Source: a phage. Taken from it: DNA of 64,000 nt. Where the stretch lies: the sequence record NC_100372.1; one strand, 5' to 3'. Under the pieces are notes generated by a model. That model worked only from the letters and a program-made list of their open reading frames with translations, did no database searches and had not been told where the DNA came from. Of the stretch, positions 26,589 to 40,750 are shown one piece after another (positions within the stretch are counted from its first letter, which is position 1; each line of letters opens with the position of its first letter). The translations under genes were made by a program, and so were the position numbers.

Positions 26589-27122
26589 ATGACTTGTGCT
26601 AGAAAACCTGACGAACAACGTAACGCCTATGATGAATATGTGACACCAGAGTGGTGTGCAGAAGGGTTGTATGACCTCATTCCGTTCCCAGAAGATTGGA
26701 CCTATTTGGAGCCTTGCAGGAATAGCGCCTCAGGTGTGTTCTACTCCCGTATGCCGTTAGGATCTGCATGGGGAGAAATCCAAGAAGGTGTTGACTATCT
26801 GAATACGGAATACAACCATGTTGACTGTATTATCACCAACCCGCCGTACAGCCTGGCTCGTGAGTTTGTGGACAAGGCGTTGAAAGATGCCGACGTAGTT
26901 ATTATGCTTTTGCGTCTTAATTTTCTGGAAAGCAAGGCCAGATTTGAATGGTGGCTTGATAATGCCCCTACCACTGTGATCACAATATCTAAGCGTCCAT
27001 CATTCCAATCGAATGGCAGAACTGACGGGCAAGCATATGCATATTTTGTGTGGGACAAGAAGAACCGTTTAGACCTACCACCATTTATGTGGTTGGCACC
27101 TCCGGAGGCAGACTTGAAATGA
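26589..27122 (+). CDS. Small phage Dam-like N6-adenine DNA methyltransferase, orphan
   Basis: Catalytic motif CIITNPPYSL; 177 aa. Confidence 0.65.
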   Translation: MTCARKPDEQRNAYDEYVTPEWCAEGLYDLIPFPEDWTYLEPCRNSASGVFYSRMPLGSAWGEIQEGVDYLNTEYNHVDCIITNPPYSLAREFVDKALKDADVVIMLLRLNFLESKARFEWWLDNAPTTVITISKRPSFQSNGRTDGQAYAYFVWDKKNRLDLPPFMWLAPPEADLK

Positions 27123-27403
27123 AAATGAGTGCTAAGGACAAGTTGCACCAGTTAGCGCTAAAACGTCCTGTAACTCTCCCTGACGAGCTTAACTCCATTT
27201 ATGATGCGATTGTAGGGGAGATACAAAATAAGGCGTTAGCAGGCTTTCTGGGATGCGGATTTTCGATAAATCTTCCATCACACCTCTCAGACTACTTCCC
27301 ACACATCGTTGGGGATTTGAGGGCAGGAGGTCTGCAGGTGGATGTTGTTGGCATCTCCCCGGAGAAAAATAACACAGTTGCCTACTTGACAGTGACCTGG
27401 TAG
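27119..27403 (+). CDS. Hypothetical protein
   Basis: Start at MKMSAKDK overlapping the methyltransferase stop (aATGa). Confidence 0.4.
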   Translation: MKMSAKDKLHQLALKRPVTLPDELNSIYDAIVGEIQNKALAGFLGCGFSINLPSHLSDYFPHIVGDLRAGGLQVDVVGISPEKNNTVAYLTVTW

Positions 27404-27412
27404 TAGTGTATT

Positions 27413-27679
27413 TTGTTTTCAACAAGAGGGGGGTCATCTATGTATAAGTCATTTTCAATTTACTCAAGACAGGCAAAACACTACACAGAGATTCTGATCA
27501 CTCAGAAAAAATCTGTGGAAGGTGAGTGGGAATATCATCATAAAATGTTGCGTCCAGACTGGGTTTTTGATAGGCTTATTGCTATGATCCCTCTTGGAGA
27601 AGTATACCCTCTGACAGGTCATAGGGATGCTTGGGATTTAATTGACTATATAGATTCATTTAAGGAGCCTAGATTATGA
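27413..27679 (+). CDS. Hypothetical protein
   Basis: 88-aa ORF. Confidence 0.35.
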   Translation: MFSTRGGSSMYKSFSIYSRQAKHYTEILITQKKSVEGEWEYHHKMLRPDWVFDRLIAMIPLGEVYPLTGHRDAWDLIDYIDSFKEPRL

Positions 27680-28074
27680 AGATTGAGATTACTGAAGAAG
27701 GTAAGAAAGTCTCTGGTAACTATGCAACAGTTATCCGTGATGTAATGTTCGAAGTCACTAAGATTGGCACATCCAAGGTTGGTCAAACGGTGAGTGTGCA
27801 AGGTAATATCACCGCAGGAGAGAAGATATTCATCGTGATAAAAGGCCAGGATCCTGTAGAAGGGACAGTTGGACGTGGTGGATACTTGTGTATCTCTGAA
27901 GAGCCTCGCATGCTAGTTGCTGATAACTCCACAGGTAAAAAGCGAGTATGTAACACGGACGAGGTGATGATTATCTATCCAGTCAACCCGGATGATCCGG
28001 CAACATGGATTGTGGGAAATGAAATCTTCTCTTTAGAAGAGCTATCCTTCCCAGCTCCGCGATCTGTTCAGTAA
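27676..28074 (+). CDS. Hypothetical protein (MKIEIT... N-terminus)
   Basis: 132-aa ORF; N-terminal MKIEITEEGKK pattern recurs in other genes of this block. Confidence 0.4.
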   Translation: MKIEITEEGKKVSGNYATVIRDVMFEVTKIGTSKVGQTVSVQGNITAGEKIFIVIKGQDPVEGTVGRGGYLCISEEPRMLVADNSTGKKRVCNTDEVMIIYPVNPDDPATWIVGNEIFSLEELSFPAPRSVQ

Positions 28075-28113
28075 TAATTTATCTTGCCAGGGACGGCAAA
28101 AGCAGGAGGTAGC

Positions 28114-28347
28114 ATGAAAGTTAAATTTCTTACAGATTTAGGGTACCCTTCCTTGGTTGACTGCGTTGGTAAAATTGTGGAAGCAAAACGGCTATCTGCA
28201 AACGATAATGTTGTCATGGTTAAGGGAAAAGATTTACTAGCTGCAGGTGCAGAGTCTGGCAGGATCTCTCCTGACTATACGTATTACCTGTCTTTAAGTA
28301 ATCTACCAGAACGAGGCGGCAAAGGCCTTGAAGTTGTGGAGGAGTGA
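28114..28347 (+). CDS. Small acidic protein, paralog family A
   Basis: MKVKFLTDLG...KGKDLLAAGAE...LEVVEE; paralogous to 31772, 31986, 33496 and 34933. Confidence 0.45.
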   Translation: MKVKFLTDLGYPSLVDCVGKIVEAKRLSANDNVVMVKGKDLLAAGAESGRISPDYTYYLSLSNLPERGGKGLEVVEE

Positions 28348-28889
28348 CAGGTATGCTTCTGATTAACTGGGAAGACCTCTATGGGGACAAAGACCCTGTT
28401 GCGTTTGTTGATCGTAGGTGGAGGTACACTGAAGAACAACTGGCTGCAAAAAATTTAACTGCAAAACGCAGAAAGATCATCCAGTGCAAGTACAAATACG
28501 CACAGTTTGCTGCAAAAGTGTCTCCACAAATCGAGAGTTTTGTACTTAAATTGTATGACGAGTACCTCAAATTCAAATTGGATTTTGTACAGGTATACCG
28601 TGCACAGGTACGTCCAGATACCAACATCTGTAGATGGAAGGTTGTTTGTGATGGTAAAGATTTGCCGCTCAGTTTGACAATTGAGTGGCGTTGGGGGTAT
28701 CATGAGTGCGGTTTGTATGATATTTGGGATGTCATTGTAGATCCTGCTAAGTACCTGAACACAGAGGAGCTGGAATATATCAATAAGGTTATTCTAGATA
28801 TGTTTTTCAGCTACACCCATGAAAACTCTGAGAAAGAACGGGATAATTTTCTTGACACCCTCGGCAACCACCTGCAGTGTACAATTTAA
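28344..28889 (+). CDS. Hypothetical protein
   Basis: 181-aa ORF. Confidence 0.4.
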   Translation: MTGMLLINWEDLYGDKDPVAFVDRRWRYTEEQLAAKNLTAKRRKIIQCKYKYAQFAAKVSPQIESFVLKLYDEYLKFKLDFVQVYRAQVRPDTNICRWKVVCDGKDLPLSLTIEWRWGYHECGLYDIWDVIVDPAKYLNTEELEYINKVILDMFFSYTHENSEKERDNFLDTLGNHLQCTI

Positions 28890-28907
28890 CCTACAAAGGA
28901 GGAGCCA

Positions 28908-29144
28908 ATGAGTATAGATGCTGTGCTGATAGGTTACCTGGTAGTAGCTGTTATAACAGCAGTAATCTTGGCAGGTATATGCATCGTGTCTACACGAAGG
29001 GTGAAGTTTGATGATTTTATCACCATCATCACTGCTGCGCCCTTTTGGCCTGTTGTTATCTTCATCGTAATAATGTGCCTAGTTGATTACCACAAGAATA
29101 TCCGTAAGGAGAAAAAGGAGAGTAGGGATGGATACCGCACCTAA
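28908..29144 (+). CDS. Small membrane protein (two predicted TM helices)
   Basis: VLIGYLVVAVITAVILAGICIV and IITAAPFWPVVIFIVIMCLV; GGAG RBS. Confidence 0.4.
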   Translation: MSIDAVLIGYLVVAVITAVILAGICIVSTRRVKFDDFITIITAAPFWPVVIFIVIMCLVDYHKNIRKEKKESRDGYRT

Positions 29145-29280
29145 AACTGTTTATACTGTTCTTAAAGAGATTGCGTTCTACGCAGATCTTAGCCGGGCAC
29201 CTTTATGGGAAAAGAATATGTATTTAAAATGGTGCGTGAAATTAGGGGGGCCTTCTAATGTTTCAAGCCATGTTTATTGA
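29128..29280 (+). CDS. Hypothetical small protein
   Basis: Start at MDTAPKTVY within the longer track ORF 29083-29280. Confidence 0.3.
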   Translation: MDTAPKTVYTVLKEIAFYADLSRAPLWEKNMYLKWCVKLGGPSNVSSHVY

Positions 29281-29546
29281 AATGCTCTCTGGGGTATTAC
29301 TGCTGGTAGCCATTTTGGGTGGCGCGGCACTGATGTATAATTATCTTGAAAAAGGGGACAGTAATGACAAAAAAATAAATCCTTAGAACAGGCTGAAAAC
29401 CTTCTCCACGAGCTGGTAAAGGAGTGGAAAGTTGAATACTCAGATTTTAATGCAAGAGAGGGGGAAGATTATTGGCCTACAGAGCGCTCAGAGGGAGAGT
29501 GGTATCAAGATTTCATAGAATGGCTATATCAGACGTGCGATGAGGG

Positions 29547-30008
29547 GTGACGATGTTTGTTAAATATGTAAAAACGTGCCTCAACAACCTTGGTAGAGAG
29601 CATTGGTACACACTGCTTGAAAAAGGAGAAATTTTAACAAAATCTGGAAAGATAACTTTGATACCTTTGGACGATAAAGACCCGTCACTACTTGTCATAG
29701 ATGATTACGTTACAGGTGTGTCGTACGAGGTATCTGTGGAGAGGTTAATACGCAGATCTGGAGGTCCTTATGACCGAAGAGAGTATGTTTTCGATTCCGT
29801 TACAGAGAAGGAAGATCCGTCCCTAATGTTTAGAATGGTAATCAGGGATATGAAATCATCTATAAATAGGATCGTAAAGGACATTAAGGAGCCTTTTAGG
29901 GTAAAAGTTAATAAGTTTTTTGATTCTAAGATCAACATACTCACCGTTGTGCTAGGCGTAATTCAACTTCTGTTAATTTTGCACTATTTTGAACTGTTGT
30001 TTAAGTAA
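29547..30008 (+). CDS. Hypothetical protein with C-terminal TM helix
   Basis: 153-aa ORF; C-terminal ILTVVLGVIQLLLILHYF. Confidence 0.4.
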   Translation: MTMFVKYVKTCLNNLGREHWYTLLEKGEILTKSGKITLIPLDDKDPSLLVIDDYVTGVSYEVSVERLIRRSGGPYDRREYVFDSVTEKEDPSLMFRMVIRDMKSSINRIVKDIKEPFRVKVNKFFDSKINILTVVLGVIQLLLILHYFELLFK

Positions 30009-30068
30009 TGTGCATTATGGCACAAAGGATGTGCCATAATTAAATAAACTAAGAAAGAGGTAGAGAGA

Positions 30069-30416
30069 ATGTCAAAGATTAAATCGATATTAATGTGGGT
30101 GGCTGTTGTAGCTTTTGTAGGATACTGGACTTGGGAAACTGAATTAAAAGATATTGGGTATACCAGCCTTGAGAGCAAGGCGTGCATTGGCATAACCGAT
30201 GCATTCAGGCAGAATGCTATGGATCACGAATGTGTCGATGCAGATATAGATGAGAAACTGTCTAAGGACAAAGATTTTTACCATGGTCATGCCTTGCTTG
30301 ATAGTGGTGACACTGTGGAATTCTGGTCGTGGTTCCGTGAAGATGGGACAATAAAGACAGCAGTAAAGATTTCCAACAAAGAGTTGATGCTGTTGCAGCA
30401 GAAGGAGGTGCAATGA
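30069..30416 (+). CDS. Hypothetical protein with N-terminal TM/signal anchor
   Basis: N-terminal ILMWVAVVAFVGYWTW; 115 aa. Confidence 0.4.
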   Translation: MSKIKSILMWVAVVAFVGYWTWETELKDIGYTSLESKACIGITDAFRQNAMDHECVDADIDEKLSKDKDFYHGHALLDSGDTVEFWSWFREDGTIKTAVKISNKELMLLQQKEVQ

Positions 30417-30700
30417 TCTGGATATCCTACGCTGATGGCACCATGCTGTATACTGCAGGTACTAGATATGAAGTTAAGGAGGACGATAAAAAATTTATCG
30501 TAAAAACATTTGACAAGGACGACAACCTTTTGCTAGAATTGACTTACAAGGTTGGGGATGTATCTAGCATCCAATTAGATTGCGGTCATAAAGATAACCC
30601 GCTCAAGAAACCTGGGGTAGGTAAAGCTTCAGAAGAACGCCTGTCTCGTATTGCAGAAAGCGTTTCTGCACAAAAATCTAAAAAGGGGACTAGAAAATGA
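30413..30700 (+). CDS. Hypothetical protein
   Basis: 95-aa ORF, coupled. Confidence 0.4.
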   Translation: MIWISYADGTMLYTAGTRYEVKEDDKKFIVKTFDKDDNLLLELTYKVGDVSSIQLDCGHKDNPLKKPGVGKASEERLSRIAESVSAQKSKKGTRK

Positions 30701-30891
30701 AAAACTTACATTTTAACACTTATTACTACAACACTTTGAATGATTTGTATTATATTGTTCGAAGTAAAAATCCTGAAACAGTCCTATTCTGCCGCGAACC
30801 TTTCAAAGGAGAGGAAGTGGAGTCTGAGATGAATGTTAGCCAGATTACCTCTTTGTTGCTCTCAGGTGCAATGGAAGAAGCAATATTCTAA
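30697..30891 (+). CDS. Hypothetical protein
   Basis: 64-aa ORF, coupled. Confidence 0.35.
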   Translation: MKNLHFNTYYYNTLNDLYYIVRSKNPETVLFCREPFKGEEVESEMNVSQITSLLLSGAMEEAIF

Positions 30892-30909
30892 ACCAGGCGG
30901 GAGGGTTTT

Positions 30910-31095
30910 ATGAAGCACTATTGTCTGTCTGGTAGGATGGGGGTGGATTGTGATTGGGTTTTCTTAAAACTTGTCAGCGTTCGAGAGTCCATCCCAGAGG
31001 AAGAGCAAGAAAGTGAGCTGATGTCATGGATCAACTATTACGGCAACACTTTCCGGCATGTCAAAATGGAAGAGCTGCCAAACGAGGCTGATTGA
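30910..31095 (+). CDS. Hypothetical protein
   Basis: 61-aa ORF. Confidence 0.35.
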   Translation: MKHYCLSGRMGVDCDWVFLKLVSVRESIPEEEQESELMSWINYYGNTFRHVKMEELPNEAD

Positions 31096-31190
31096 TTATG
31101 GTCGCATCAATATTAACGTTTATGGGTGGCGTGGCATTCGGATTCATTCTTTGTCTGTTTATAGTTATCATGGCTATGCGAGGCTGAATT

Positions 31191-31475
31191 ATGAAACTGT
31201 TCGAGTGGTTTAAAAAGTTTAAATACCAGGCTGTTGCTGTATCGAAATGGACCGTCCGCTGGGTGGACGATGATGGAACACAAATTCCCGGTGATCAGGA
31301 TACCGGATACTGGGTTATGATGGAGAACGGATTTGGGAAAAGGAAGTTTAAATGTGTTGGTGCTCCTACTCTTTTAAATGTTAGAAGTGTGCCAGGGTAC
31401 AGCACTATGGTTGTTTGGGAGCTATCCGGTGTTCCTCCTGCTAATGTGCAATATCTGCCAAACCCAGAAAAATAA
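31191..31475 (+). CDS. Hypothetical protein
   Basis: 94-aa ORF. Confidence 0.4.
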   Translation: MKLFEWFKKFKYQAVAVSKWTVRWVDDDGTQIPGDQDTGYWVMMENGFGKRKFKCVGAPTLLNVRSVPGYSTMVVWELSGVPPANVQYLPNPEK

Positions 31476-31487
31476 AAGGAGAAGATA

Positions 31488-31772
31488 ATGAGCAATGGTG
31501 TTAGCAATAGTGCTGCAGAGTTTAAAGTGATCTGTAAAGGAACTTATTGGATAGTGAAACAGAAAGTGTACCTATTCGGTTTCATACCGTTTTGGCAGAG
31601 ATTTTGCTGGGGAGCTAACGAGCTTAAGAGATACGCAACCAAGGCTATGGCACTTATTGGTATAGCTGAATACATTGCTGCCAGGGACAGAGAGGGTAAA
31701 ACTTGTTACTACACTGCTGACGAGATTCGTAACAGTGTTTACGTTCCACAACCGCCCGATGGAGACCGCTGA
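31488..31772 (+). CDS. Hypothetical protein
   Basis: 94-aa ORF with an AGGAG RBS. Confidence 0.4.
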   Translation: MSNGVSNSAAEFKVICKGTYWIVKQKVYLFGFIPFWQRFCWGANELKRYATKAMALIGIAEYIAARDREGKTCYYTADEIRNSVYVPQPPDGDR

Positions 31773-31996
31773 TGAAAGTTAAAGTTTTAGATTCAAGCTT
31801 CTATATTGGTCAGGAGCCCTTAGTGGGGAAAGTGTTTACCGCTATCCCTAACGAAGATTATCCTGACCTTCTAAAAATAAAAGGTGCAGATCTTATTGCC
31901 GCTGGTGCATCCCAGGAATGCTTTGACAGTCAGTGGACCTACAACTTTGCCCTAGGAGAGGATGTGGAGATAGTGGAGGACGATCATGAAGGTTAA
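31772..31996 (+). CDS. Small acidic protein, paralog family A
   Basis: MKVKVLDSSFYIGQEPLVGKV...IKGADLIAAGAS...EIVEDDHEG. Confidence 0.45.
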   Translation: MKVKVLDSSFYIGQEPLVGKVFTAIPNEDYPDLLKIKGADLIAAGASQECFDSQWTYNFALGEDVEIVEDDHEG

Positions 31997-32240
31997 AATT
32001 CTTGACTCTAACGTCTACTTGGGACAATCCTTCCTGAAAGGAAAGGTAGTACCTGCTGTATACTTCGAAGGGTTGCCGTGGGACGATCCTGTGCGGCAAA
32101 ATCACAGCCATGTAGGCCACAATGTGGTGTTCATCTTGGGATCAGACCTGATCGCGGCTGGTGCCCCGGAATATTATTTCGGAGAGGACTCGTATTATGC
32201 CTTTGGGGCAGGGTCAGATGCAGATATTTTAGAGCTGTGA
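31986..32240 (+). CDS. Small acidic protein, paralog family A
   Basis: MKVKILDSNVYLGQSFLKGKV...GSDLIAAGAP...ADILEL; adjacent tandem copy. Confidence 0.45.
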   Translation: MKVKILDSNVYLGQSFLKGKVVPAVYFEGLPWDDPVRQNHSHVGHNVVFILGSDLIAAGAPEYYFGEDSYYAFGAGSDADILEL

Positions 32241-32252
32241 TGGGGAACTGTT

Positions 32253-32651
32253 GTGAAAAATAAACTGTTCAAAGTTACAATGAAAATTCGCGGAGCTTGG
32301 AGCGTAAAGCAAGGGCGTATCCCCGAATTTGAGAAAGACTTCTACGTAGTCTCCACCTCGGAGGAGGCTGCATGCTGGCAGGCTGGCTATGCCTATGCAA
32401 GAACCTGGTACGAAGGATACCAGACTGGAGGCTATGACGGAGAAATTGTCAGTAAGGGTGTGGAAGAAATTAATGTGTTGACAAGTGAAAAAGTTTTTGT
32501 TATAGTGCATCCAGATTCCAGAGTGAAGCATTACTGGAATGCCAGAACAAAAACCTGGACACCGTTTGCAGATTCTGCTACACCACTTTTAAACCAGAAA
32601 GCTCTTGACTCTGCCCCAAGCTATGGGGTTGTTGAAGAAAAGATAAGCTGA
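32253..32651 (+). CDS. Hypothetical protein, paralog family B
   Basis: Paralogous to 34458-34853 (VHPDSRVKHYWNARTKTWTP versus MRHPHSNIAYYWDVLNNEWTP). Confidence 0.45.
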   Translation: MKNKLFKVTMKIRGAWSVKQGRIPEFEKDFYVVSTSEEAACWQAGYAYARTWYEGYQTGGYDGEIVSKGVEEINVLTSEKVFVIVHPDSRVKHYWNARTKTWTPFADSATPLLNQKALDSAPSYGVVEEKIS

Positions 32652-32668
32652 AATAGTGGGGTGCTTAC

Positions 32669-32959
32669 ATGATGGATTTAGTTTTGGACGCTGATAACAC
32701 CGGATCGTTTAAAAAAGATGGTGTAATAAGCATGGACCAATCCTGCGATGTCAAGATTGACTCAAAATGGACCTACAAGTTTGACGGTGAGATCTTCGCA
32801 AATGATGAGAAGGTCGTGGATGCTGTAGCCATTTTAAACGCTTTAGGGTATGACCCTGTGAACTCATTGATCAAGGATCCTGTTGAGTTTGCAGAGTATG
32901 TTCGTAAAATGGCAGATCTTGCAGTAGATATTTTAAAAACTATCGACAACAAGTTGTAA
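32669..32959 (+). CDS. Hypothetical protein
   Basis: 96-aa ORF. Confidence 0.4.
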   Translation: MMDLVLDADNTGSFKKDGVISMDQSCDVKIDSKWTYKFDGEIFANDEKVVDAVAILNALGYDPVNSLIKDPVEFAEYVRKMADLAVDILKTIDNKL

Positions 32960-33040
32960 AAACTGTTGACACAACGCTTCAGATTTAGTATCATTGTTTT
33001 CAAAGAGGGGTTGGTCCCTCTTCTTTAAAAGGAACACATT

Positions 33041-33358
33041 ATGCAAATTGAAATCACTGGCAACGTAGAGATCACTGAAGGTATGGTGTCTTTCATTTCC
33101 AACAAAATGTCCAAGCTGGAGCGTTTGCACCCCTCTGCCAACTATGCACGTGTGAGTGTAAAAGTTGAAAATGATCACCAGGAAGTTATGGCTTTCATTT
33201 TTGACACTTCTGGAAAAGAAGTTATCGCCAAAGCTAAAGGTAGTGATGCTTACGAGGCAACTGACCGTATGGTAGATGTTGCAGCACGCCAGTTGGCTAA
33301 GTGTGGTGGAAAGAAAGGTAAGGGAAAAGGCAAAGTAAAGATTGACTTTTTAGATTAA
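33041..33358 (+). CDS. hpf: Ribosome hibernation promoting factor / RaiA-family homolog
   Basis: MQIEITGNVEITEG...KLE...VSVKVE...AKGSDAYEATDRMVDVAARQLAK aligns with recalled E. coli HPF (MQLNITGNNVEITEA...KLEQ...KVE...AEGQDMYAAIDGLIDKLARQLTK); Lys/Gly-rich C-terminal tail. Confidence 0.7.
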   Translation: MQIEITGNVEITEGMVSFISNKMSKLERLHPSANYARVSVKVENDHQEVMAFIFDTSGKEVIAKAKGSDAYEATDRMVDVAARQLAKCGGKKGKGKGKVKIDFLD

Positions 33359-33495
33359 GGTGCTACAATGGGCACGATTAAGAAATTAATCCCAAATGTA
33401 GAGATTGCATGCTTTGAAATTATGTTTGCAATCGCAGTTGTAGTTAATGTGTTAGGTTACGGCTATTAATATCAAATAATTGAGGAGACCTCTAA

Positions 33496-33765
33496 ATGAA
33501 AATTAAATTATTCCAAACTGAGCTGGCAGACAAAAACTGTGGACTGGTTGAAGGCATGATCGTTGAAGCACAACCAGTTGACTACATGAAGGTGGTTCGT
33601 GATGCCCTGGGTGAAGGTTTTGATCTGATGGAGCCAGCTCTGCGAGAAGATGTCATCGAAATGGCTAAAAAGCACACACCGGAAGGTTTGGTAGTGTTTG
33701 TTGCTCCAGGTAATGGAGAGGAGTTGATTGTAACTCCGGATGTGTATGAGGTTGTAGAAGAGTAA
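33496..33765 (+). CDS. Small acidic protein, paralog family A
   Basis: MKIKLFQTEL...YEVVEE. Confidence 0.45.
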   Translation: MKIKLFQTELADKNCGLVEGMIVEAQPVDYMKVVRDALGEGFDLMEPALREDVIEMAKKHTPEGLVVFVAPGNGEELIVTPDVYEVVEE

Positions 33766-33857
33766 TCCTGCTTGGGTTGGAATACTTTCCTCGACAAGAA
33801 AGGTTTATAATTATTTGTGGGAAAGGAATCCCCATCTCTTACCAGAGGTGATACTAT

Positions 33858-34121
33858 ATGATTGTTTATTTTAAAACTTCAGGTGGATACCCTGATTCTC
33901 AAAGCTTGATTGGAAAAACGTGCACAGCATACTCACCTCTTGATGAGGAGGTAAGTGGTATCCTACGAGATATGTATCGGATTGATCCACAAGAAGCTTT
34001 TGATCAAAACCTTGTATTTGTCAAGGGATCAGACATAAAGTCTTTGGGGGCATTCCCTGAAGCAGATGATGATGCTGTTTATTCGTTTATGACACCTTTT
34101 GAAGCTATGGTTGTGGGGTAA
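33858..34121 (+). CDS. Hypothetical small acidic protein
   Basis: 87-aa ORF. Confidence 0.4.
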   Translation: MIVYFKTSGGYPDSQSLIGKTCTAYSPLDEEVSGILRDMYRIDPQEAFDQNLVFVKGSDIKSLGAFPEADDDAVYSFMTPFEAMVVG

Positions 34122-34125
34122 GAAT

Positions 34126-34458
34126 ATGAAAGTACGCTTTATTGGTGAAACAATTCCTGTGCATCTCCGGTCTCCTGAAGACTCTGCAGATCTTGCATCT
34201 CAAAAGGCGAGAGGGTATGATAAGAAAGTGATCTCAAGCAATGTAGAGCTTGAGGCCACCAGTCTGCCTGACCCAGCTGCATTCTTCAATCATTATGGCT
34301 ACTATTTTAGCAATCTGATGAATATTGGTGAGCTTGTGTTTATTAGTGGTGGAGAGATAGTTAGCAAGCTTGGTGGAGATCCGGATATCTTTCATGAAAC
34401 CTGTCCTTTTGCATTTGTGGTGGGTTCAGATGTGGAAGTTATTGAGGAGGTTCGGTAA
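34126..34458 (+). CDS. Hypothetical small acidic protein
   Basis: Start at MKVRFIGETIP; C-terminus EVIEEVR resembles family A. Confidence 0.4.
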   Translation: MKVRFIGETIPVHLRSPEDSADLASQKARGYDKKVISSNVELEATSLPDPAAFFNHYGYYFSNLMNIGELVFISGGEIVSKLGGDPDIFHETCPFAFVVGSDVEVIEEVR

Positions 34459-34853
34459 TGGTAAGTCTATACCGTGTTGAGTATAGCTCGGATACTGTAT
34501 ACAACGTAAGAAGCAAAGATCGCAGTGATAGAGTGCAAGAAATGTATGTTCTTGCAGATAGTCCGTTATCTGCAGCGTTCAAGGCAGGAGCTCTTGCATC
34601 TCGTTGGAAATTTGAGGGTGGATCTTTCTATGAAGAAACCCTCGAAGATTCTGTTGTTATTTCTTCTGTAGAGGTTTCAACCGACTACGAAGGGAAAAAG
34701 TTCGTAATGCGGCACCCACACAGCAACATTGCGTACTACTGGGATGTTCTGAACAATGAGTGGACCCCTGATCTTCAGAAGGCCACTGTTCTAACCCCAT
34801 TCCTGGCAGATAAGTTCCCACCAGAAGGTAATTTATCTGCACTGTTTCAGTAA
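34458..34853 (+). CDS. Hypothetical protein, paralog family B
   Basis: Paralogous to 32253-32651. Confidence 0.45.
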   Translation: MVSLYRVEYSSDTVYNVRSKDRSDRVQEMYVLADSPLSAAFKAGALASRWKFEGGSFYEETLEDSVVISSVEVSTDYEGKKFVMRHPHSNIAYYWDVLNNEWTPDLQKATVLTPFLADKFPPEGNLSALFQ

Positions 34854-34862
34854 TTTTATGCC

Positions 34863-34900
34863 ACACAGGTGTTGACAACACCAACCCTGTGTGCAATAAT
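34863..34900 (+). promoter_or_regulatory. Promoter with embedded inverted repeat (operator-like)
   Basis: TTGACA 34872-34877, 17-nt spacer, AATAAT 34895-34900; inverted repeat cacacagg (34863-34870) / cctgtgtg (34886-34893) brackets the -35. Confidence 0.45.
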
Positions 34901-34932
34901 ACCTTCATCTTAACAAGATAGGAGACCGACTG

Positions 34933-35190
34933 ATGAAGATTAAATTGAAAAACCTTGAAACGGCAGAGATTCAGGAAGGTGTTGATTTCCGTTCTAAAGA
35001 TGGAGACATCCTAGAGGCGAATGTCCCGACATATAAGTTGATTAAAGGTTTTGGCAACGTTCCGGAGGAGGATATTACAGACATTCTTATGATGTTGATC
35101 CTTGACGGGACTGTGTTTGTAGGTGAAGGTGAGAACGCTATTGCAATCCCGAGCCATTTTTATGAAGTAGTTGACGAAGAGGTGCTGTAA
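34933..35190 (+). CDS. Small acidic protein, paralog family A
   Basis: MKIKLKNLET...YEVVDEEVL. Confidence 0.45.
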   Translation: MKIKLKNLETAEIQEGVDFRSKDGDILEANVPTYKLIKGFGNVPEEDITDILMMLILDGTVFVGEGENAIAIPSHFYEVVDEEVL

Positions 35191-35541
35191 ATGAAAGTAG
35201 AGATCACAGGTTTTGATATGAATGCGGTTCCGGAAGATATTTTAGCTAAACTCCCGGAAGGTTTTAGTAACGGTGTTGTGGTGGATGCTGTCCCTCCTAC
35301 CAAAGACATTCTGCTGCAGTATGGTGTAGCAGAGGAGGATGTCGATAAAGTTCTTACAATGATGGCAATCGACCGTGTTGTCGTTGTTAAAGGTCTTGAA
35401 GGTTTTGATGACGATCCTCTGATTATTCGTGGTGATGACTATCGCATCATCGACAACGAAGGCCAAGAGTTCTACGAACCTTCTGCTGAAGATGTTCTTA
35501 ACTTACTACTGGAAGCAGGCACCGAAGAGGAGGAAGAATAA
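35191..35541 (+). CDS. Hypothetical small acidic protein
   Basis: MKVEITGFDM...; 116 aa. Confidence 0.4.
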   Translation: MKVEITGFDMNAVPEDILAKLPEGFSNGVVVDAVPPTKDILLQYGVAEEDVDKVLTMMAIDRVVVVKGLEGFDDDPLIIRGDDYRIIDNEGQEFYEPSAEDVLNLLLEAGTEEEEE

Positions 35542-35870
35542 TGAAAATTGATCCGTTACTGAAGGCTCGTGCAGAAAAAGCATACACTATCAAGCTGACC
35601 TCTCTGGTCCCTACTTGTCATCCGGATGTAGGTTGGCCTGAAGGCCTGGTAGAGGGGACTGTAACAGCTGCATACCTTCCTAACATCAAATACCTCATGG
35701 AGATCTTGGAGATGGATGAGGAAACTGCAGAACAGTTCCAGTTAGACATGAAACAAAGTGGGACTCTGGTTATTCACGGGTGGTATAATACTAAAGATGC
35801 AGAAGATCCTCTGGTAACTTCTAATCTGGCATATGAAATCTTAGGACCTTTGAACTTGGGGGAAGATTAA
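35541..35870 (+). CDS. Hypothetical protein
   Basis: 109-aa ORF, coupled. Confidence 0.4.
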   Translation: MKIDPLLKARAEKAYTIKLTSLVPTCHPDVGWPEGLVEGTVTAAYLPNIKYLMEILEMDEETAEQFQLDMKQSGTLVIHGWYNTKDAEDPLVTSNLAYEILGPLNLGED

Positions 35871-36157
35871 TGAAAGATTTGGTCAAGATCAAGATTAAAG
35901 ATACCAATGGAGAACTCAGCCATTTTGGAATTAACGATGGTGACGAGCTGGTCGCCCACCTGCCTACCAAGGAAGTTGTAAGCAAGGCTGTTGCCGGAGA
36001 AGAAGATGCAATGCAGGCTGCTGGTGTGGATGAAAACTATGTAGCCATGTGCATGTGCCGAGATCAGGTTGTTCTGTATAAAGCGTATCGACCAAATGGA
36101 GCACCTGAGTGGCTTGTTTTCCGACCCGAAGGGTATGAAATTTTAGAGACACTATGA
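35870..36157 (+). CDS. Hypothetical small acidic protein
   Basis: 95-aa ORF, coupled. Confidence 0.4.
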   Translation: MKDLVKIKIKDTNGELSHFGINDGDELVAHLPTKEVVSKAVAGEEDAMQAAGVDENYVAMCMCRDQVVLYKAYRPNGAPEWLVFRPEGYEILETL

Positions 36158-36246
36158 TAAATCTTGCCAAGGTTGCAATGGCACTGCTAATTATTTGCTG
36201 GATAGTGACCTTGGCACTATGTCTTGTATTTCATTAAGGGGGCTGT

Positions 36247-36510
36247 ATGAACATCTTGGTGTGGGTTGTGGCAGTGGCGTTTGTTGCGTGCCTCTCTTGT
36301 TGGGTTGCTGTGAGGATTTCTATAGCCACTCTTCGGAAATTAGGGTTCTCAGAGTGGGATATTAATATCCTTTCTTTTCGCAATGAGACAATCTCAGCCG
36401 CCCTGCTGTGCAAGAGGTTTAAGTGGGAACCTTGTGAGGTCATGAACTATCTAAGAACAGGGGATATTCCTGAGAGATTTAAAAAAGTTCTTGACGGCAA
36501 AGACAAATGA
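36247..36510 (+). CDS. Hypothetical protein with N-terminal TM helix
   Basis: MNILVWVVAVAFVACLSCWVAV; 87 aa. Confidence 0.35.
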   Translation: MNILVWVVAVAFVACLSCWVAVRISIATLRKLGFSEWDINILSFRNETISAALLCKRFKWEPCEVMNYLRTGDIPERFKKVLDGKDK

Positions 36511-36665
36511 TAGTATAGTGACTAACAAGAGGTGAGGAATGACTGATTTTACTGAAGCTTTAATGATGGCCTTATCTGTTTTAGCGCTATCGGTGTGTTT
36601 TGGAGCGTTATTCACATCTCTGGTTAGAGTTTTACATACCATATTATCACCCAAGGAGCACAGTA

Positions 36666-36916
36666 ATGACGAAGATTGACTTAAATGCTGGCGACCATTT
36701 GTTGTCAAATGCATCGGGGATTATCTTGGATTCACAATCGGCAACACTTACGAGGCGGTAGTGGCGAAGGTTTATCATGATAAAGTCCTCAGCCTTGTGT
36801 TTGACTGTGATGATGACGGAGATGACCGTTACGTCTGTGAGGTGCTGGCACGTGACGATAGTGAAGACCAGAAATTCCTGGTTATTGAACTGAACGGTAT
36901 TTTTGTAGAACGTTAA
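36666..36916 (+). pseudogene. Possible frameshifted or non-ATG-initiated member of the small acidic protein family
   Basis: ATG at 36666 opens a 31-codon frame (MTKIDLNAGD...); a family-like sequence (...VYHDKVLSLVFDCDDDGDDRYVCEVLARDDSEDQKFLVIELNGIFVER) continues in a different frame to the stop at 36914-36916 with no in-frame ATG. Confidence 0.25.
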
Positions 36917-36944
36917 TTTAAAACAATATAAGGAGACTCTTACT

Positions 36945-37250
36945 ATGGCTAAATCTAAAGTTGAACTGTTCACCTCTCTGCCTTCTGACACTGCAGAGCG
37001 TGATCGCCTCCGTAAAACAATTGAAGAGCTGGTGGAACTTCAGCTTCAGATTAAAGATCTGAAAGACGCTATCAAGGATATTATTCTTGTCGAGAAACAG
37101 GATCATCTGTATTCTCCTAAGTTTATCAAGTCATTGGTGGCTACCGAATTCGATATCCGCTACGAAGCTGAAAAACGTCGAGCTAAAATCGAAGAAGAGG
37201 TTGAGCACATGTCTGAAGCAGACATTCTGTTCAAACGCTCTGCAGAATAA
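36945..37250 (+). CDS. Hypothetical protein
   Basis: 101-aa ORF with an AAGGAG RBS. Confidence 0.45.
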   Translation: MAKSKVELFTSLPSDTAERDRLRKTIEELVELQLQIKDLKDAIKDIILVEKQDHLYSPKFIKSLVATEFDIRYEAEKRRAKIEEEVEHMSEADILFKRSAE

Positions 37251-37267
37251 CAACGAGGAGGGGTCTT

Positions 37268-37289
37268 GGCCCCTATTTTTACTATCTAT
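37268..37289 (+). terminator. Intrinsic terminator
   Basis: aggggt-cttg-gcccct followed by attttta. Confidence 0.7.
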
Positions 37290-37303
37290 GGAGAAGATCA
37301 GAA

Positions 37304-37630
37304 ATGCTAATGCCGATTACTGTAAAAGAGCTAAATGAACGTGATGCAGGGGGCCTGTGGCCTGCACGGAAAATACGCTGCGTTTATATGAAAGAGAATC
37401 TTGAGCACCTTGATCAGCAGATTGCGGTTGGTGATATTTTCGAAGTTCTCTATTCTAATCGTCGCAACTGGGAAACCATTCAACCTTCCGGTTTTGTTCT
37501 TGCCAGACTTGATACTGGAGAAGTGATTATCCCCGGGCTGGATATTGTCTTCGAAATTATCCAGGAGTGGGATCCTGATAAGATTAAATATGAAGAGTTA
37601 TTCGGTGAAGGTATTATCAAGCCTGTGTGA
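37304..37630 (+). CDS. Hypothetical protein
   Basis: 108-aa ORF. Confidence 0.4.
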   Translation: MLMPITVKELNERDAGGLWPARKIRCVYMKENLEHLDQQIAVGDIFEVLYSNRRNWETIQPSGFVLARLDTGEVIIPGLDIVFEIIQEWDPDKIKYEELFGEGIIKPV

Positions 37631-37638
37631 GGTGGATT

Positions 37639-37938
37639 ATGTCTACAACGACAGCTAAATACTCCTATATGCCAGCAACCTCAGCAGAAATAGACTTCAG
37701 TTTCGATGTGTTTCCATTGTTTGAGATAGTCCTGGCATACCCAACAATTCTATCTACTCCTGAATCACTTGTACCTGTTAAGTTGCAGAACGCTATGCAT
37801 TCCATGCACTACAACAATAAATGTAGGCACAGATGGTGTCAAGACGAGGAAAAAGATCTGGAGAGTTTGAAAGATTTTGACAGTCACCTTTTGACACCTT
37901 TTAGTTACTCAAACCTAGACAAACCCTCATGGGTATAG
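37639..37938 (+). CDS. Hypothetical protein
   Basis: Start at MSTTTAKYS with a GAGGTGG RBS. Confidence 0.4.
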   Translation: MSTTTAKYSYMPATSAEIDFSFDVFPLFEIVLAYPTILSTPESLVPVKLQNAMHSMHYNNKCRHRWCQDEEKDLESLKDFDSHLLTPFSYSNLDKPSWV

Positions 37939-37962
37939 CAAAATATCAAATTTAAGGCACCT

Positions 37963-37990
37963 AGGACGCTCTGTGGCGTCCTTTTCTTTA
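37963..37990 (+). terminator. Intrinsic terminator
   Basis: aggacgc-tctgtg-gcgtcct followed by tttcttta. Confidence 0.7.
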
Positions 37991-38151
37991 TCTGGTGCAC
38001 GATTCCATACCTTAGACAATTAATCTCCTTACAGAGCGTTTAAAGGCATCCTACAAACAACTCTCTATTTCGAGCGTAGCGAGAACGCACGCCCGTTTTG
38101 ACCCAAATCACCATACGCTCGGATTTTAACCAAACCCTCGCGGTGTTTCTG

Positions 38152-38180
38152 TTGACACATTACCGCTCCTGTGATAATAT
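38152..38180 (+). promoter_or_regulatory. Sigma70-like promoter
   Basis: TTGACA 38152-38157; -10 candidates GATAAT 38173-38178 or TAATAT 38175-38180. Confidence 0.45.
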
Positions 38181-38200
38181 CCACACATCGTTTGAAGAAT

Positions 38201-38293
38201 ATGGGATACACAATGAAAACATTGTCAGAGGTTTTAGTGGTGATCCTGATGATCATTGCGTCCATAGCGGCTGTTGCCGGAATATGCTTATAG
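38201..38293 (+). CDS. Hydrophobic 30-aa micro-protein (MGYTMKTLSEVLVVILMIIASIAAVAGICL)
   Basis: Single predicted TM helix; downstream of the 38152 promoter; below the ORF-track threshold; speculative. Confidence 0.3.
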   Translation: MGYTMKTLSEVLVVILMIIASIAAVAGICL

Positions 38294-38368
38294 CATCGAC
38301 ACGTTCCAGCCATATGTCGATAAAGTCTTATTTTTTAAACATGTTGCCGGAATACTCACGGGTGGAAC

Positions 38369-38554
38369 ATGACCAACACACATGCATCTACAGAAACATC
38401 TGAAGGAGTGACAGAGGAAAACTTCAATTCTGAGGATTCTCTATCTCCGTCCCAGGTGGACCCTGAGGCTGATGACCTAACGTGGGAGGATATCATAGCC
38501 ATCTGGTTCTCTATTATGCCTGAGCACGAAGAGTTCAGAGGTGGGAGACTATGA
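38369..38554 (+). CDS. Hypothetical small acidic protein
   Basis: 61-aa ORF. Confidence 0.35.
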   Translation: MTNTHASTETSEGVTEENFNSEDSLSPSQVDPEADDLTWEDIIAIWFSIMPEHEEFRGGRL

Positions 38555-38674
38555 AGCACCGAGCCCACATAAGTTTATCATGCTAAAGCATGGCCTGAAG
38601 GGGCAAACGTGCATAATTCCATCGTATTGGAACGTATAAACCCCGTTCACACTCTCATTTCCAGAGGAGATTTC

Positions 38675-38890
38675 ATGAAAATAGAAATATTTGGTGGGGC
38701 TGACAACACTCGTGGCCTGATTTACCTTGAATTCGATGAATCTTACCTGCCAGAGGTGTTAAATATAGATGCTGTTGCGGAAGCCCTTGATGTAGACCCT
38801 AAAGATCTCTACTCCCGTGCTGAGATTGATGGTTGGGAAGAGACTCTGAACATTGATTTCAGTGAAGTAGTAGATGAACCTTTGGACTGA
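38675..38890 (+). CDS. Hypothetical small acidic protein (MKIEIFGG... N-terminus)
   Basis: Start at MKIEIFGGADNTRGL with a GAGGAG RBS; last gene of the plus-strand block. Confidence 0.45.
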   Translation: MKIEIFGGADNTRGLIYLEFDESYLPEVLNIDAVAEALDVDPKDLYSRAEIDGWEETLNIDFSEVVDEPLD

Positions 38891-40355
38891 CACACAAGTC
38901 TGCTTTGCAGGTTTAGCTGCTCAGCTAAGGTTCTGGAGTCACCTATAACATCTTCCAACTAAATTTCCTACCAACACAGTTACTTACCCACCACACATGA
39001 CTGTTTGCTTGTTTAGTGAGCAGTCATCCCTTGACATTCTTGCCTATCTTGATAAAATTAAGTTCTTCTCTTTTCTTTTACCGAGTAATTCGGGTTTTCT
39101 GTTCTCTTCGGTTTGAAGGGGTATGGAGATACACCTGAGTGAACAGGGTGAACAACCGAACCTTTAGCTATGGCATTAGCATGGCGAAGCGGACGGGTGA
39201 CGAAAGAGGGGCCGGAGGACACCAGTCACTGCCATATAGTATATGGGTGATAACCTGAAGAGTCTGAATAAGTGTTTAAGTACCAGTCAGAGGAAAAGGT
39301 GAATGGTAGCCGAAGGGGGAGGGGGGTTTCTTATATCTTTAATTTGTATACTTTATATACACTTGTAAACCAATTCAATTAGGATCTGTTTACCACACAA
39401 AGTGGATGGAGACAAATATCACCTATTAAACTTGAATTATTTATAGAAAATACCACAACACCGCTTAAGTCTTTGATTTTACACACAAATCTTACAAATA
39501 TCCTACCTCCATATTTAACATACTTGTAACATATTCCATATCCTACCTGCCTGATCAATTTACTCCCACCACATTCCCACATTTTCCCTGTCTGTACTAC
39601 CCCACCCCCGCCGGGAGTCCCGTCATATCTGGCTTTCCAGCAAATATCACACCCACAAATATCATCACCTGAAGAGGGTTTCATCCCATAATACCTGCCT
39701 TACCTGAAGAGCGCTTCATACACCACCTAAATTTTTTAATTGACCCCTCCCCGCCGCCGGAGAGGTTGGCTTTTCCCACACAGGCCTGAAGAGTCAGCCA
39801 GAAATATCTGAACAGGTCCAGTTATGCCCCGATTTTGTGCTTGTCCTACAGGAGTGCTGCCCTGTCAGGAGCCGGTAGCGACTGGAGTGCTGCCAGGCGG
39901 ACGGAATGGGAATACTTCTCATTTTTATAATAATTCTCAAATATCGAGGCAGTGAGGCAAATTAATAGGCCAGGCCGTTCACACAGTGGCACAACATTTG
40001 CAATCTATCTTGTGGGAGTGAATGAGAATACCTATCATTGTGAGAATGGTTATCATTACGGGCAATTTAACATAATACCTATTATGCGCACCACTGGCGA
40101 TACATACAGGGATTGATAACATGGGTTACTGTTTACGCACATAACAATTATATTTATTACTATTTGTGTGGGATATAGTTAGCAACCAATAGATTAGATA
40201 TTGACCTGCAGACTTCTGACCGTCCAGACGTCTAAACGCCCACACAACAAGGATTATACATACATTCCTGAATGTAAACAGGGCCGCAAAAAATGCTACC
40301 ATACCAGTTTGTAAATTTTTCATGCAGCACTTGACAAAGAGGAGAAAAACTTGTC

Positions 40356-40417
40356 TGACACAATGTGACAAAATTGCCACTTTTGACACTTTTACCTTTG
40401 ACACAATATGACACAAT
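40356..40417. repeat. Cluster of five TGACA(C/A)(A/T)(A/T)T repeats
   Basis: tgacacaat 40356, tgacaaaat 40366, tgacacttt 40384, tgacacaat 40399 and 40409; inside the ORF-free region. Confidence 0.6.
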
Positions 40418-40443
40418 AACGGCTGTTACTATTCCATATCTCA

Positions 40444-40503
40444 CTGTTTACGTATAGACTGTTTACGCCTGAATAGTTTACGCCCAAACTGTTTACACAG
40501 AGA
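40444..40503. repeat. Four tandem 15-bp repeats with core TGTTTACRC
   Basis: ctgtttacg 40444, ctgtttacg 40459, tagtttacg 40474, ctgtttaca 40489 (exact 15-bp period); extra copies at 40129, 40900 and 40943. Confidence 0.8.
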
Positions 40504-40510
40504 TGATAAG

Positions 40511-40750
40511 CCATGACATTCGTTTGCATGAAAACAATTAACAAGTTAATAATATATGACATAATATAAAAGCAGGGCAACTATTAGAAGATCTATAGTT
40601 GCCTTGCTTGTTATGTCATGATTAACTAAATACAAGGCAACTATGATCTGAATAATAGATTGCAGAAAAACTATCACGGGGGTGATTGTTACTGCTTTTA
40701 TATTATGTCGCGACTCCGTCGCGCCATGCCATTCGTTTGCATAGTTGCCT
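40511..40750. repeat. Nested dyad-symmetric element
   Basis: Perfect 18-bp inverted repeat gacataatataaaagcag (40558-40575) / ctgcttttatattatgtc (40692-40709); inner palindrome ggcaactat-N10-atagttgcc (40576-40603); GGCAACTAT again at 40636 and inverted at 40741; flanking direct repeat cattcgtttgcat (40517 and 40731); palindrome cgcgac-tcc-gtcgcg (40709-40723). Confidence 0.8.

Follow-up and report, generated by a model that had tools for sequence, protein, structure and literature searches.

The 64,000-nucleotide stretch of NC_100372.1 analysed here (the window) is DNA of a Vequintavirus, an rV5-like myophage, and the accessory block of this E. coli phage holds genuine, diverged families of tiny acidic proteins that look like small beta-barrels. 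Published Tn-seq data show that one set of three adjacent genes from this block, cassette 2, is conditionally required on the uropathogenic E. coli strain CFE311. The barrel array may therefore consist of strain-specific counter-defence or host-adaptation binders, with cassette 2 acting as a unit, a reading for which we judge the chances to be about even.

The block lies at the distal end of a long replication and nucleotide-metabolism unit (rV5 genes 82–163, PMC3606486), which within the block also carries an hpf/RaiA ribosome-hibernation homolog (33041–33358) and a putative regulator (36945–37250). It contains several strong σ70-like promoter matches (11/12); its description as an early region is unproven. 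All ORFs listed by the first-pass annotation are present with the starts it gave, the one discrepancy being the end of the micro-ORF at 29258 (29386 instead of 29388, 2 nt off). That annotation had proposed arrays of paralogous, acidic and rapidly diverging small proteins. Paralogous families are indeed found, although not as the single family A proposed; acidity holds for both barrel groups (pI 4.1–5.4, net charge -1 to -22, with most members at pI 4.1–4.7 and -6 to -22) but not for the family B protein 32253 (pI 7.8); and rapid divergence is contradicted by strong purifying selection on the orthologs, with pN/pS of 0.02–0.23.

Two groups of predicted small barrels

Comparisons within the window (phmmer and HMM searches against its 681 ORFs) split the supposed family A into two groups, A1 and A2-type. 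A1 has five members: the genes starting at 28114, 31772, 31986 and 34126, which are mutually similar (phmmer E 4e-11 to 5e-3), and 33858, previously overlooked, which is recruited by profile (E 5e-6). A deep A1 profile (86+4 sequences) matches 28114, 31772, 31986 and 33858 over their full length (E 2e-30 to 5e-17; 5.5e-17 for 33858) and 34126 over its C-terminal half (E 2e-7). The A1 motifs are an MK[VI]K start, a G-K turn, G-x-[DE]-L-I-x-x-G-A, Y-x-F and an acidic E-V-V-E end, and Tyr11, Leu41, Gly45 and Phe59 are at least 90% conserved in an alignment of 64 diverse A1 sequences. The A2-type group also has five members (33496, 34933, 35191, 35541 and 35870), and is found in this genus only. 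Genes of both groups, other than the A1 genes of the cassettes described below, and two unlinked genes are as follows.

28114–28347, plus strand: A1, solitary copy, 77 aa (deep profile E 2e-25; phrog_5009; pN/pS 0.11)
33496–33765, plus strand: A2-type, 89 aa (leave-one-out HMM; pN/pS 0.03)
34933–36157, plus strand: A2-type run of four genes, each start within 1 nt of the preceding stop
34933–35190 and 35191–35541, plus strand: A2-type, 85 and 116 aa (leave-one-out HMM group)
35541–35870 and 35870–36157, plus strand: A2-type, 109 and 95 aa (leave-one-out HMM group)
27676–28074, plus strand: acidic protein of 132 aa with an MKIEI start, unlinked to A1, A2-type or B (phrog_5748; hhalign below 3%)
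38675–38890, plus strand: very acidic protein of 71 aa (net -16), membership not demonstrable (phrog_12108)

A1 is part of PHROG 5009, a broader phage family that is uncharacterised; 28114, 31772 and 31986 align to it over their whole length (E 1e-31 to 2e-38), and it is also matched by all 64 wider A1 relatives. The proteins 33858 and 34126 have PHROGs of their own (13920 and 13661) and are tied to A1 only through the profiles built here. None of the 64 relatives matches Pfam, and no solved structure in the PDB was matched by sequence. Single A1 homologs occupy the moron slot between the Q antiterminator and holin genes of lambdoid E. coli prophages, and Proteus, SU10-like and Krischvirus phages carry further homologs, frequently in tandem, among clusters of small genes. 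Natural chimeras of 31772 and 31986 were also found (P0015 and P0017).

The sequence support for the A2-type grouping is modest rather than strong. Its members are joined only by leave-one-out profiles, in which the omitted protein is always the top non-member match (E 1e-4 to 2e-2; 1.3e-4 for 35870, 2.2e-3 over the full length for 33496, and 3.5e-3 to 1.8e-2 for 35541), with the next unrelated ORF at E ≥0.39; in a direct phmmer comparison 34933 and 35191 match at E 5e-4. The four-gene run is preceded by a σ70-like promoter match (34872–34900, 11/12 plus TG).

The first-pass annotation had placed 33496 and 34933 in the core of its family, yet the deep A1 profile gave E 16 or no match against both, as it did against 35191, 35541, 35870, 38675 and 27676. 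By hhalign, A1 and A2-type are weakly similar (14.5% probability, E 0.002), colinear over β1–β2 and the C-terminal strand. AlphaFold models of both groups are confident (pLDDT of 89.5 for the AF2 model of 34933) and predict five antiparallel strands in a small barrel matching SH3, KOW or PsaE domains, and the AF2 models of the two groups recover identical SH3 domains in structure searches. On these models both groups look like SH3-like small beta-barrels, the A2-type being probably a related barrel with a helical insert, and a distant common origin is for that reason plausible but unproven. The proteins 27676 and 38675, also thought to be related, share nothing with these families beyond the MK[VI]x start, a motif for which 10 of the 11 carriers in the window (ORFs of at least 60 aa) lie inside the block; 38675 gave E >0.2 against the family HMMs and 5.6% by hhalign, over 10 N-terminal columns.

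A repeated three-gene cassette

The second family proposed earlier, B, was borne out: 32253 and 34458 are true paralogs (phmmer E 3e-10, hhalign 93.9%) which share phrog_7379 (E 2e-73 and 4e-66). Family B is confined to Vequintavirus, with six clusters among 5.8 billion proteins. We also found that each B gene follows two A1 genes, the order A1-A1-B thus occurring twice (chance P=5.5e-5).

31772–32651, plus strand: cassette 1, with A1 31772–31996 (74 aa), A1 31986–32240 (84 aa) and B 32253–32651
33858–34853, plus strand: cassette 2, with A1 33858–34121 (87 aa), A1 34126–34458 (110 aa) and B 34458–34853 (131 aa)

The genes of cassette 2 are tightly packed, with a 4-nt gap followed by a 1-nt overlap. 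For 32253, the annotated ATG of the relatives lies at about 32280.

Hydrophobic micro-ORFs

As previously described, the families are interleaved with six short ORFs, each of which contains one hydrophobic stretch (Kyte-Doolittle 19-residue maximum 2.2–3.0).

29258–29386, plus strand: 42 aa, intact in 7/7 relatives with the locus, GTG start in 6/7; ortholog bas54_0162 non-essential
31098–31187, plus strand: 29 aa, spacers of 2–3 nt to its neighbours, intact in 6/6 having it; pN/pS 0.21
33368–33469, plus strand: 33 aa, directly after hpf, intact in 8/8 and nearly invariant
36154–36237, plus strand: 27 aa, intact in 8/8; pN/pS 0.38; Kyte-Doolittle maximum 2.94
36539–36679, plus strand: 46 aa, strong Shine-Dalgarno AGAGGTGAGGA, intact in 8/8; pN/pS 0.33
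38201–38293, plus strand: 30 aa, weak Shine-Dalgarno; 33 aa with another C-terminus in relatives, missing in one

Judging from hydropathy and ORF conservation, these are putative one-helix membrane peptides. That they are instead chance hydrophobic frames in intergenic spacers appears quite unlikely. Their very short length, the lack of a Tn-seq phenotype and the near-exact deletion of 31098 from phage Aya (which lacks window positions 31101–31179) would fit chance frames, and the RBS-like sequences attributed to all six proved weak at 36154 and 38201. However, the other four have a good Shine-Dalgarno or overlap the preceding stop codon, all six are intact wherever the locus is retained among eight related genomes of ~90% nucleotide identity, their substitutions are mainly conservative hydrophobic ones (pN/pS 0.21–0.38 for three), and they fit the gaps between genes almost exactly, the start of 36154 overlapping the stop of the 35870 gene by 4 nt. 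In the Bas54 Tn-seq preprint (bioRxiv 10.1101/2025.11.20.689424), bas54_0154, the ortholog of 33368, is non-essential with no effect on CFE311, and bas54_0144, the ortholog of 36539, is "intermediate" on K-12.

Dispensable on K-12, conditionally required on CFE311

The block is accessory, with natural deletions in Bas59 (which lacks cassette 1) and Bas54, and Tn-seq of Bas54 on K-12 classed all its family genes as non-essential or intermediate (bioRxiv 10.1101/2025.11.20.689424); its genes are thus dispensable on this host.

The result on CFE311 is different for cassette 2, whose Bas54 orthologs bas54_0152, bas54_0151 and bas54_0150 are 96–98% identical. No transposon reads were recovered in any of the three (log2FC -7.16, -6.17 and -6.77, q=0), in one pooled screen without clean knockouts of the cassette genes (bioRxiv 10.1101/2025.11.20.689424, Extended Data Table 8). 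In the same data bas54_0157, the ortholog of the cassette 1 B gene 32253, is depleted 4-fold (log2FC -2.14, q=0), both A1 genes in cassette 1 are unaffected (+0.98 and -0.30), and bas54_0153, the ortholog of 33496, has a log2FC of -2.78 that is not significant. Seven of the ten barrel genes have no CFE311 phenotype: 28114 (bas54_0166), 31772, 31986, 34933, 35191, 35541 and 35870. The authors of the screen did not comment on the loss of cassette 2 insertions or on the depletion of the 32253 ortholog. A non-family neighbour in the block (37639–37938, plus strand) is the ortholog, at 92% amino acid identity, of bas54_0140, validated by knockout as an anti-DS-28 gene (Tn-seq log2FC -5.48; bioRxiv 10.1101/2025.11.20.689424).

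With the orthologs of one cassette needed only on one clinical strain, the small proteins probably serve in counter-defence or in adaptation to particular hosts. The anti-defence role first suggested for these families, or one in host adaptation, thus gains indirect experimental support for some members (33858, 34126, 34458 and, less strongly, 32253) and from the neighbouring anti-DS-28 gene, but not for most of them.

Proposed role of the array and alternatives

We propose that this dispensable region of the Vequintavirus genome encodes stand-alone, mostly acidic, SH3-like barrels of ~70–115 residues (A1 and probably A2-type), together with the genus-specific 131-aa B protein and several putative one-helix membrane peptides. 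The array would have arisen by tandem and segmental duplication, including that of the A1-A1-B cassette. Its barrel proteins may be stoichiometric binders of host proteins whose paralogs diverged toward different targets, and the lack of any enzyme-like family match in Pfam or the PDB is consistent with binding. The three proteins of cassette 2 (33858, 34126 and 34458) may jointly neutralise a strain-specific barrier present in CFE311 and absent in K-12, most likely an immunity system. Several points weigh against this proposal: the CFE311 result comes from a single pooled screen in a preprint, polarity on 34458 or transposon read-through could produce the hits in the A1 genes of cassette 2, the requirement on CFE311 could stem from host physiology instead of immunity, and most barrel genes have no phenotype there.

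If physiology is the cause, the barrels could be general host-takeover modulators which bind conserved host machinery (RNA polymerase, the ribosome, nucleoid proteins) and tune infection. The hpf/RaiA homolog and putative regulator in the same unit, promoter matches that fit transcription by the host polymerase, and a predicted fold common to KOW and ribosomal L24-type domains would suit such a role. We consider it unlikely, since K-12 and CFE311 would share such targets and yet the requirement is strain-specific, and strong acidity speaks against direct RNA or DNA binding.

If polarity is the cause, only the B protein 34458 (and weakly 32253) would be needed on CFE311, the upstream A1 hits being artefacts and the A1 and A2-type roles unrelated or redundant. 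The translational packing of cassette 2 would allow this, depletion in cassette 1 is limited to the B gene, and B is the only family with a signal from both paralogs. This explanation also seems improbable to us: the B phenotype is not reproduced, even partially, by insertions in the A1 genes that precede the B gene in cassette 1, and the Tn-seq authors argue that polarity is rarely seen and report that essential genes usually tolerate insertions upstream of them (bioRxiv 10.1101/2025.11.20.689424).

Acidic DNA mimics that counter restriction in the manner of Ocr, ArdA or Arn, suggested by the high negative charge, are disfavoured as highly improbable, because the barrels are predicted to be compact rather than elongated helical DNA-like charge arrays, match no solved structure by sequence and belong to a group, the Vequintavirinae, which is reported from BASEL phenotyping to be exceptionally sensitive to restriction-modification (PMC8594841), a sensitivity which also argues against the array being a general anti-restriction arsenal.

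A more specific form of the counter-defence reading, possible although we remain doubtful of it, is that A1-A1-B is a three-protein module acting against an immunity system of CFE311, the A1 barrel being a widespread, repeatedly duplicated adaptor by which coliphages and prophages target host immunity. If so, an unannotated family of at least 83 sequence clusters would gain a function. Much of the content of large lytic phage genomes consists of small uncharacterised genes. For one such family (absent from Pfam, "unknown" in PHROG) there is now a fold prediction, a delimited distribution and a three-gene arrangement that occurs twice, and the family can be tied to a published Tn-seq phenotype, seen with a clinical E. 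coli host, that had drawn no comment. What were "hypothetical proteins" thereby become a candidate module for host range or counter-defence that can be tested directly, of relevance to rV5-like phages, a group under wide consideration for use in therapy and food safety.

Comparison with known systems

[quoted passage not shown] These too are AlphaFold-predicted five-stranded small beta-barrels, uncharacterised and non-essential in the laboratory, with several paralogs in one lytic coliphage genome that are invisible to each other by BLAST. They differ in having extra C-terminal domains and genes scattered over the genome, whereas the barrels described here are single-domain, strongly acidic and clustered, partly in A-A-B repeats. 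Homology to the N-terminal domains of GoF or MotB.1 was not found (HMM E >0.4, hhalign below 2%). The morons of lambdoid prophages carry a 75-aa A1 homolog (P0030) in the Q-lysis slot; there the phage is temperate and has one copy, unlike the five A1 and five A2-type genes of this virulent myophage. PHROGs 5009 and 13367 are uncharacterised clusters without annotation, fold or context description. Finally, the block resembles phage anti-defence islands (T4 accessory genes; bas54_0140 and bas54_0063 against DS-28, found by HIDEN-SEQ), as both are accessory clusters of small, non-essential, uncharacterised genes needed conditionally on particular hosts, and the block itself includes a validated anti-defence gene; those islands include validated cases such as bas54_0140, whereas the A1 and B genes are candidates for the same kind of role.

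Genomic setting of the small-protein block

The phage is a Vequintavirus, i.e. an rV5-like E. coli myophage. Its accessory region rich in small-protein genes (27000-39000, hereafter the block) is 98.9% identical to that of vB_EcoM-ECP26 and is covered by 115 phage records at 80-99% identity; outside the genus, DNA comparison recognises only one block gene, a putative regulator. The block is encoded on the plus strand, downstream of genes for a ClpP-like protease and a DNA methyltransferase, and almost all of its genes are labelled "hypothetical" in GenBank.

25488-26537, ClpP-like protease, upstream of the block
26589-27122, DNA methyltransferase, upstream of the block
36945-37250, putative regulator, within the block

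In rV5 the block forms the distal end of a unit, "genes 82-163", which it shares with replication and nucleotide-metabolism genes (PMC3606486); no data on transcription timing in Vequintavirus were found in the literature. At its end, ~2.5 kb poor in ORFs (about 38900-41400) separate two convergent transcription units; Rfam gave no match for this stretch. In HIDEN-SEQ, a preprint describing transposon sequencing of the related phage Bas54 (MaxBurger), the equivalent stretch received zero insertions (bioRxiv 10.1101/2025.11.20.689424), which suggests an essential non-coding function. Separately, the gene at 36666-36916 carries a 1-nt deletion at about 36698 relative to all relatives, causing a frameshift in an 83-aa gene that is otherwise highly conserved (pN/pS of the C-terminal part 0.02); either the gene has truly been inactivated or the deletion stems from a sequencing error.

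Two groups of predicted barrel paralogs

The first-pass annotation had proposed one expanded family of small acidic proteins, with five core genes (28114, 31772, 31986, 33496 and 34933, named by their start positions) and several looser members. All the ORFs it named are present, with plausible starts, and the start motif that it noticed, MK[VI]x, is real and local, as 10 of the 11 ORFs of at least 60 aa carrying it in the whole window fall in the block. The paralogy is also real, so that the observation was largely right, but the family boundaries had to be corrected.

When all 681 window ORFs of at least 30 aa were searched with phmmer, 28114, 31772, 31986 and 34126 matched one another (E 4e-11 to 5e-3), 34933 matched 35191 (E 5e-4), and no other pair was significant except 32253 and 34458, discussed below. 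A profile of the first four genes recruited 33858 (E 5e-6), which had not been listed. This group, A1, was widened with homologs from two sources: 39 hits among 5.8 billion proteins, and 83 clusters with E ≤ 1e-3 from HMMER run over the full set of 1.84 billion cluster representatives. The resulting deep profile recovers exactly five window genes, 28114, 31772, 31986, 33858 and 34126 (E 2e-30 to 2e-7), and none of 33496, 34933, 35191, 35541, 35870, 38675 and 27676. Since it misses 33496 and 34933, the proposed core is a mixture of two groups, A1 and a second one, which we call A2-type (33496, 34933, 35191, 35541 and 35870). Leave-one-out profiles of the latter retrieved 35870 (E 1.3e-4), 33496 (E 2.2e-3) and 35541 (E 3.5e-3 to 1.8e-2), each as a full-length match and the top hit among non-members, the next ORF having an E of at least 0.39. 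Neither leave-one-out profiles nor profile-profile comparison linked 27676 or 38675 to A1 or A2-type, and these two genes, which had been considered related, were removed.

The AlphaFold2 model of 31772, built from a 36-sequence A1 alignment, has five strands and one short helix (pLDDT 91.6, pTM 0.79). That of 34933, from the A2-type alignment (pLDDT 89.5), has the same strand order, but strands 2 and 3 are separated by an insert of two helices. The combined A2-type profile aligned colinearly but weakly with the A1 profile (14.5%, E 0.002). Our reading is that both groups share a predicted small-barrel fold, and a distant common origin is plausible. Pfam searches with 20 block proteins and with 64 A1 relatives gave no match, a PDB sequence search with the A1, A2-type and B profiles gave no meaningful match and no solved relative, and the neighbours in a BFVD fold search were uncharacterised phage proteins only.

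A2-type homologs are confined to Vequintavirus. A1-like genes occur as a single copy between the Q antiterminator and holin genes of E. coli lambdoid prophages, whereas a SU10-like contig, a Proteus phage and the T4-like Krischvirus KFS-EC have them in tandem pairs or clusters:

L018 (Krischvirus KFS-EC), 1400-4830, adjacent or clustered A1-like copies
L006 (SU10-like), 3945-4515, adjacent or clustered A1-like copies
L017 (Proteus phage), 4989-6655, adjacent or clustered A1-like copies

Because multiple copies are found in such unrelated phages, tandem expansion of the domain is recurrent. A1-like genes are accessory outside Vequintavirus as well. Among other genera of the Vequintavirinae, no homologs were found in the Mydovirus and Henunavirus stretches compared, 40-60 kb per genome. 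One fusion of an A1 domain, to DUF3310, was found; a further A1 match, in a repeat protein of 4527 aa, is likely to be spurious.

Cassette repetition, recombination and deletion

The paralogy of 32253 and 34458, the second family (B) proposed initially, was confirmed (phmmer E 3e-10, hhalign 94%, both in PHROG 7379); B is confined to Vequintavirus. A third B-like candidate, 28353, was rejected, as its hhalign probability of 99.9% was an artefact of a deletion-fusion in the Bas59 ortholog and fell to 0.1% without that sequence.

The order A1-A1-B is seen twice, each time tightly packed, in cassette 1 (31772/31986/32253) and cassette 2 (33858/34126/34458). Under random order of five A1 and two B genes among 40 genes this has P = 5.5e-5, an indication that a cassette of three genes was duplicated. 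At 34933-36157, four A2-type genes directly adjoin one another, preceded by a sigma70-like promoter match (11/12) at 34872-34900. Between the cassettes lies a homolog of the ribosome hibernation factor hpf/RaiA (33041-33358, plus strand), itself preceded by a sigma70-like match (11/12, 32966-32994); its Bas54 ortholog is non-essential on K-12 and on CFE311, a uropathogenic E. coli strain.

Two 70-aa proteins from metagenomic Vequintavirus contigs (P0015 and P0017) are chimeras of the N-terminal half of 31772 and the C-terminal half of 31986, joined at the conserved GADLIAAGA motif, which indicates unequal recombination between tandem paralogs. Related phages also carry natural deletions, which mark parts of the block as dispensable:

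28750-32565, absent from Bas59 (L011), cassette 1 included
29583-31500, absent from Bas54 (L021)
31101-31179, absent from Aya (L012), almost exactly one micro-ORF (31098)

In Bas59 the deletion has fused gene 28353 with the 3' portion of 32253; at the junction, ~15 nt can be aligned to either side. The families had been described as rapidly diverging, but their orthologs are not fast-evolving: across eight genomes, pooled pN/pS was 0.02-0.23 for every A1, A2-type and B gene save 32253, whose raw 0.37 is affected by the fusion artefact from Bas59.

The six micro-ORFs (29258, 31098, 33368, 36154, 36539 and 38201) are probably genes, judging from their sequence features: each encodes one strongly hydrophobic stretch, they occupy inter-gene gaps almost exactly, and in every compared genome retaining the locus they are intact, with mostly conservative changes. 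No transposon phenotype was seen for them in Bas54 on K-12 or CFE311. Four larger block proteins also have strongly hydrophobic segments, and the block is thus unusually rich in predicted small membrane proteins:

28908-29144, plus strand
29547-30008, plus strand
30069-30416, plus strand
36247-36510, plus strand

Host-specific requirement for cassette 2

Bas54 genes were mapped to window genes at 80-100% amino-acid identity. On K-12 all classified block genes were "non-essential" or "intermediate" (bioRxiv 10.1101/2025.11.20.689424). In the resampling table comparing K-12 with CFE311 (HIDEN-SEQ Extended Data Table 8), all three cassette-2 orthologs had zero reads in CFE311.

Change of Bas54 orthologs in CFE311 relative to K-12
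33858 (bas54_0152), log2FC -7.16, q=0
34126 (bas54_0151), log2FC -6.17, q=0
34458 (bas54_0150), log2FC -6.77, q=0
32253, the other B gene (bas54_0157), log2FC -2.14, q=0
33496, log2FC -2.78, not significant

The remaining barrel genes and the micro-ORFs showed no change in that table. In the same file (sheets Data S6/S7), the sheet labelled "K-12_vs_CFE303" repeats the TRANSIT command and the numbers of the CFE311 sheet; as this is the same run, the data are for CFE311, and the file contains no CFE303 resampling values for Bas54. The main text of the preprint mentions neither the cassette-2 genes nor bas54_0157 (bioRxiv 10.1101/2025.11.20.689424).

A neighbouring non-family gene (37639-37938, plus strand, 99 aa) is the ortholog, at 92% amino-acid identity, of bas54_0140, which was validated by knockout as needed against DS-28, a predicted defence system of CFE311 (bioRxiv 10.1101/2025.11.20.689424). 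This gene is misnamed 'portal vertex protein' in several GenBank records. Past the non-coding stretch, a run of small genes corresponding to bas54_0123-0134 (minus strand, beyond about 41.4 kb) is likewise depleted in CFE311 (log2FC -2 to -5) and may be a second host-specific accessory cluster.

Possible role of the barrel proteins

We propose that these proteins are compact, acidic, non-enzymatic barrels which bind host factors, that the specificity of the paralogs has diverged, and that the genes of cassette 2 work as one unit to overcome a barrier specific to CFE311. For the cassette-2 depletion, polar effects of insertions are a real caveat, although in cassette 1 disruption of the upstream A1 genes does not copy the phenotype of the downstream B gene. 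A role as RNA chaperones, as suggested for the T4 GoF family (PMC12152347), would agree with the predicted fold, but fits the charge of the barrel proteins poorly, and that family has no sequence relation to them. A general anti-restriction role is unlikely, given that this phage group is reported to be exceptionally sensitive to restriction-modification systems (PMC8594841) and that the predicted fold is not DNA-like.

The idea of a host-takeover or anti-defence arsenal, put forward in the first-pass annotation, is partly supported, by the loss of cassette-2 transposon reads on CFE311 and the need for the neighbouring bas54_0140 against DS-28, whereas the rapid divergence invoked for it is not. 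No sequence homology was found between the A1/A2-type proteins and GoF or MotB.1 of T4. The barrel families are uncharacterised and of a kind already known, the small accessory proteins that lytic phages carry as sets of paralogs, and together with B they come with an unusually clear experimental handle.
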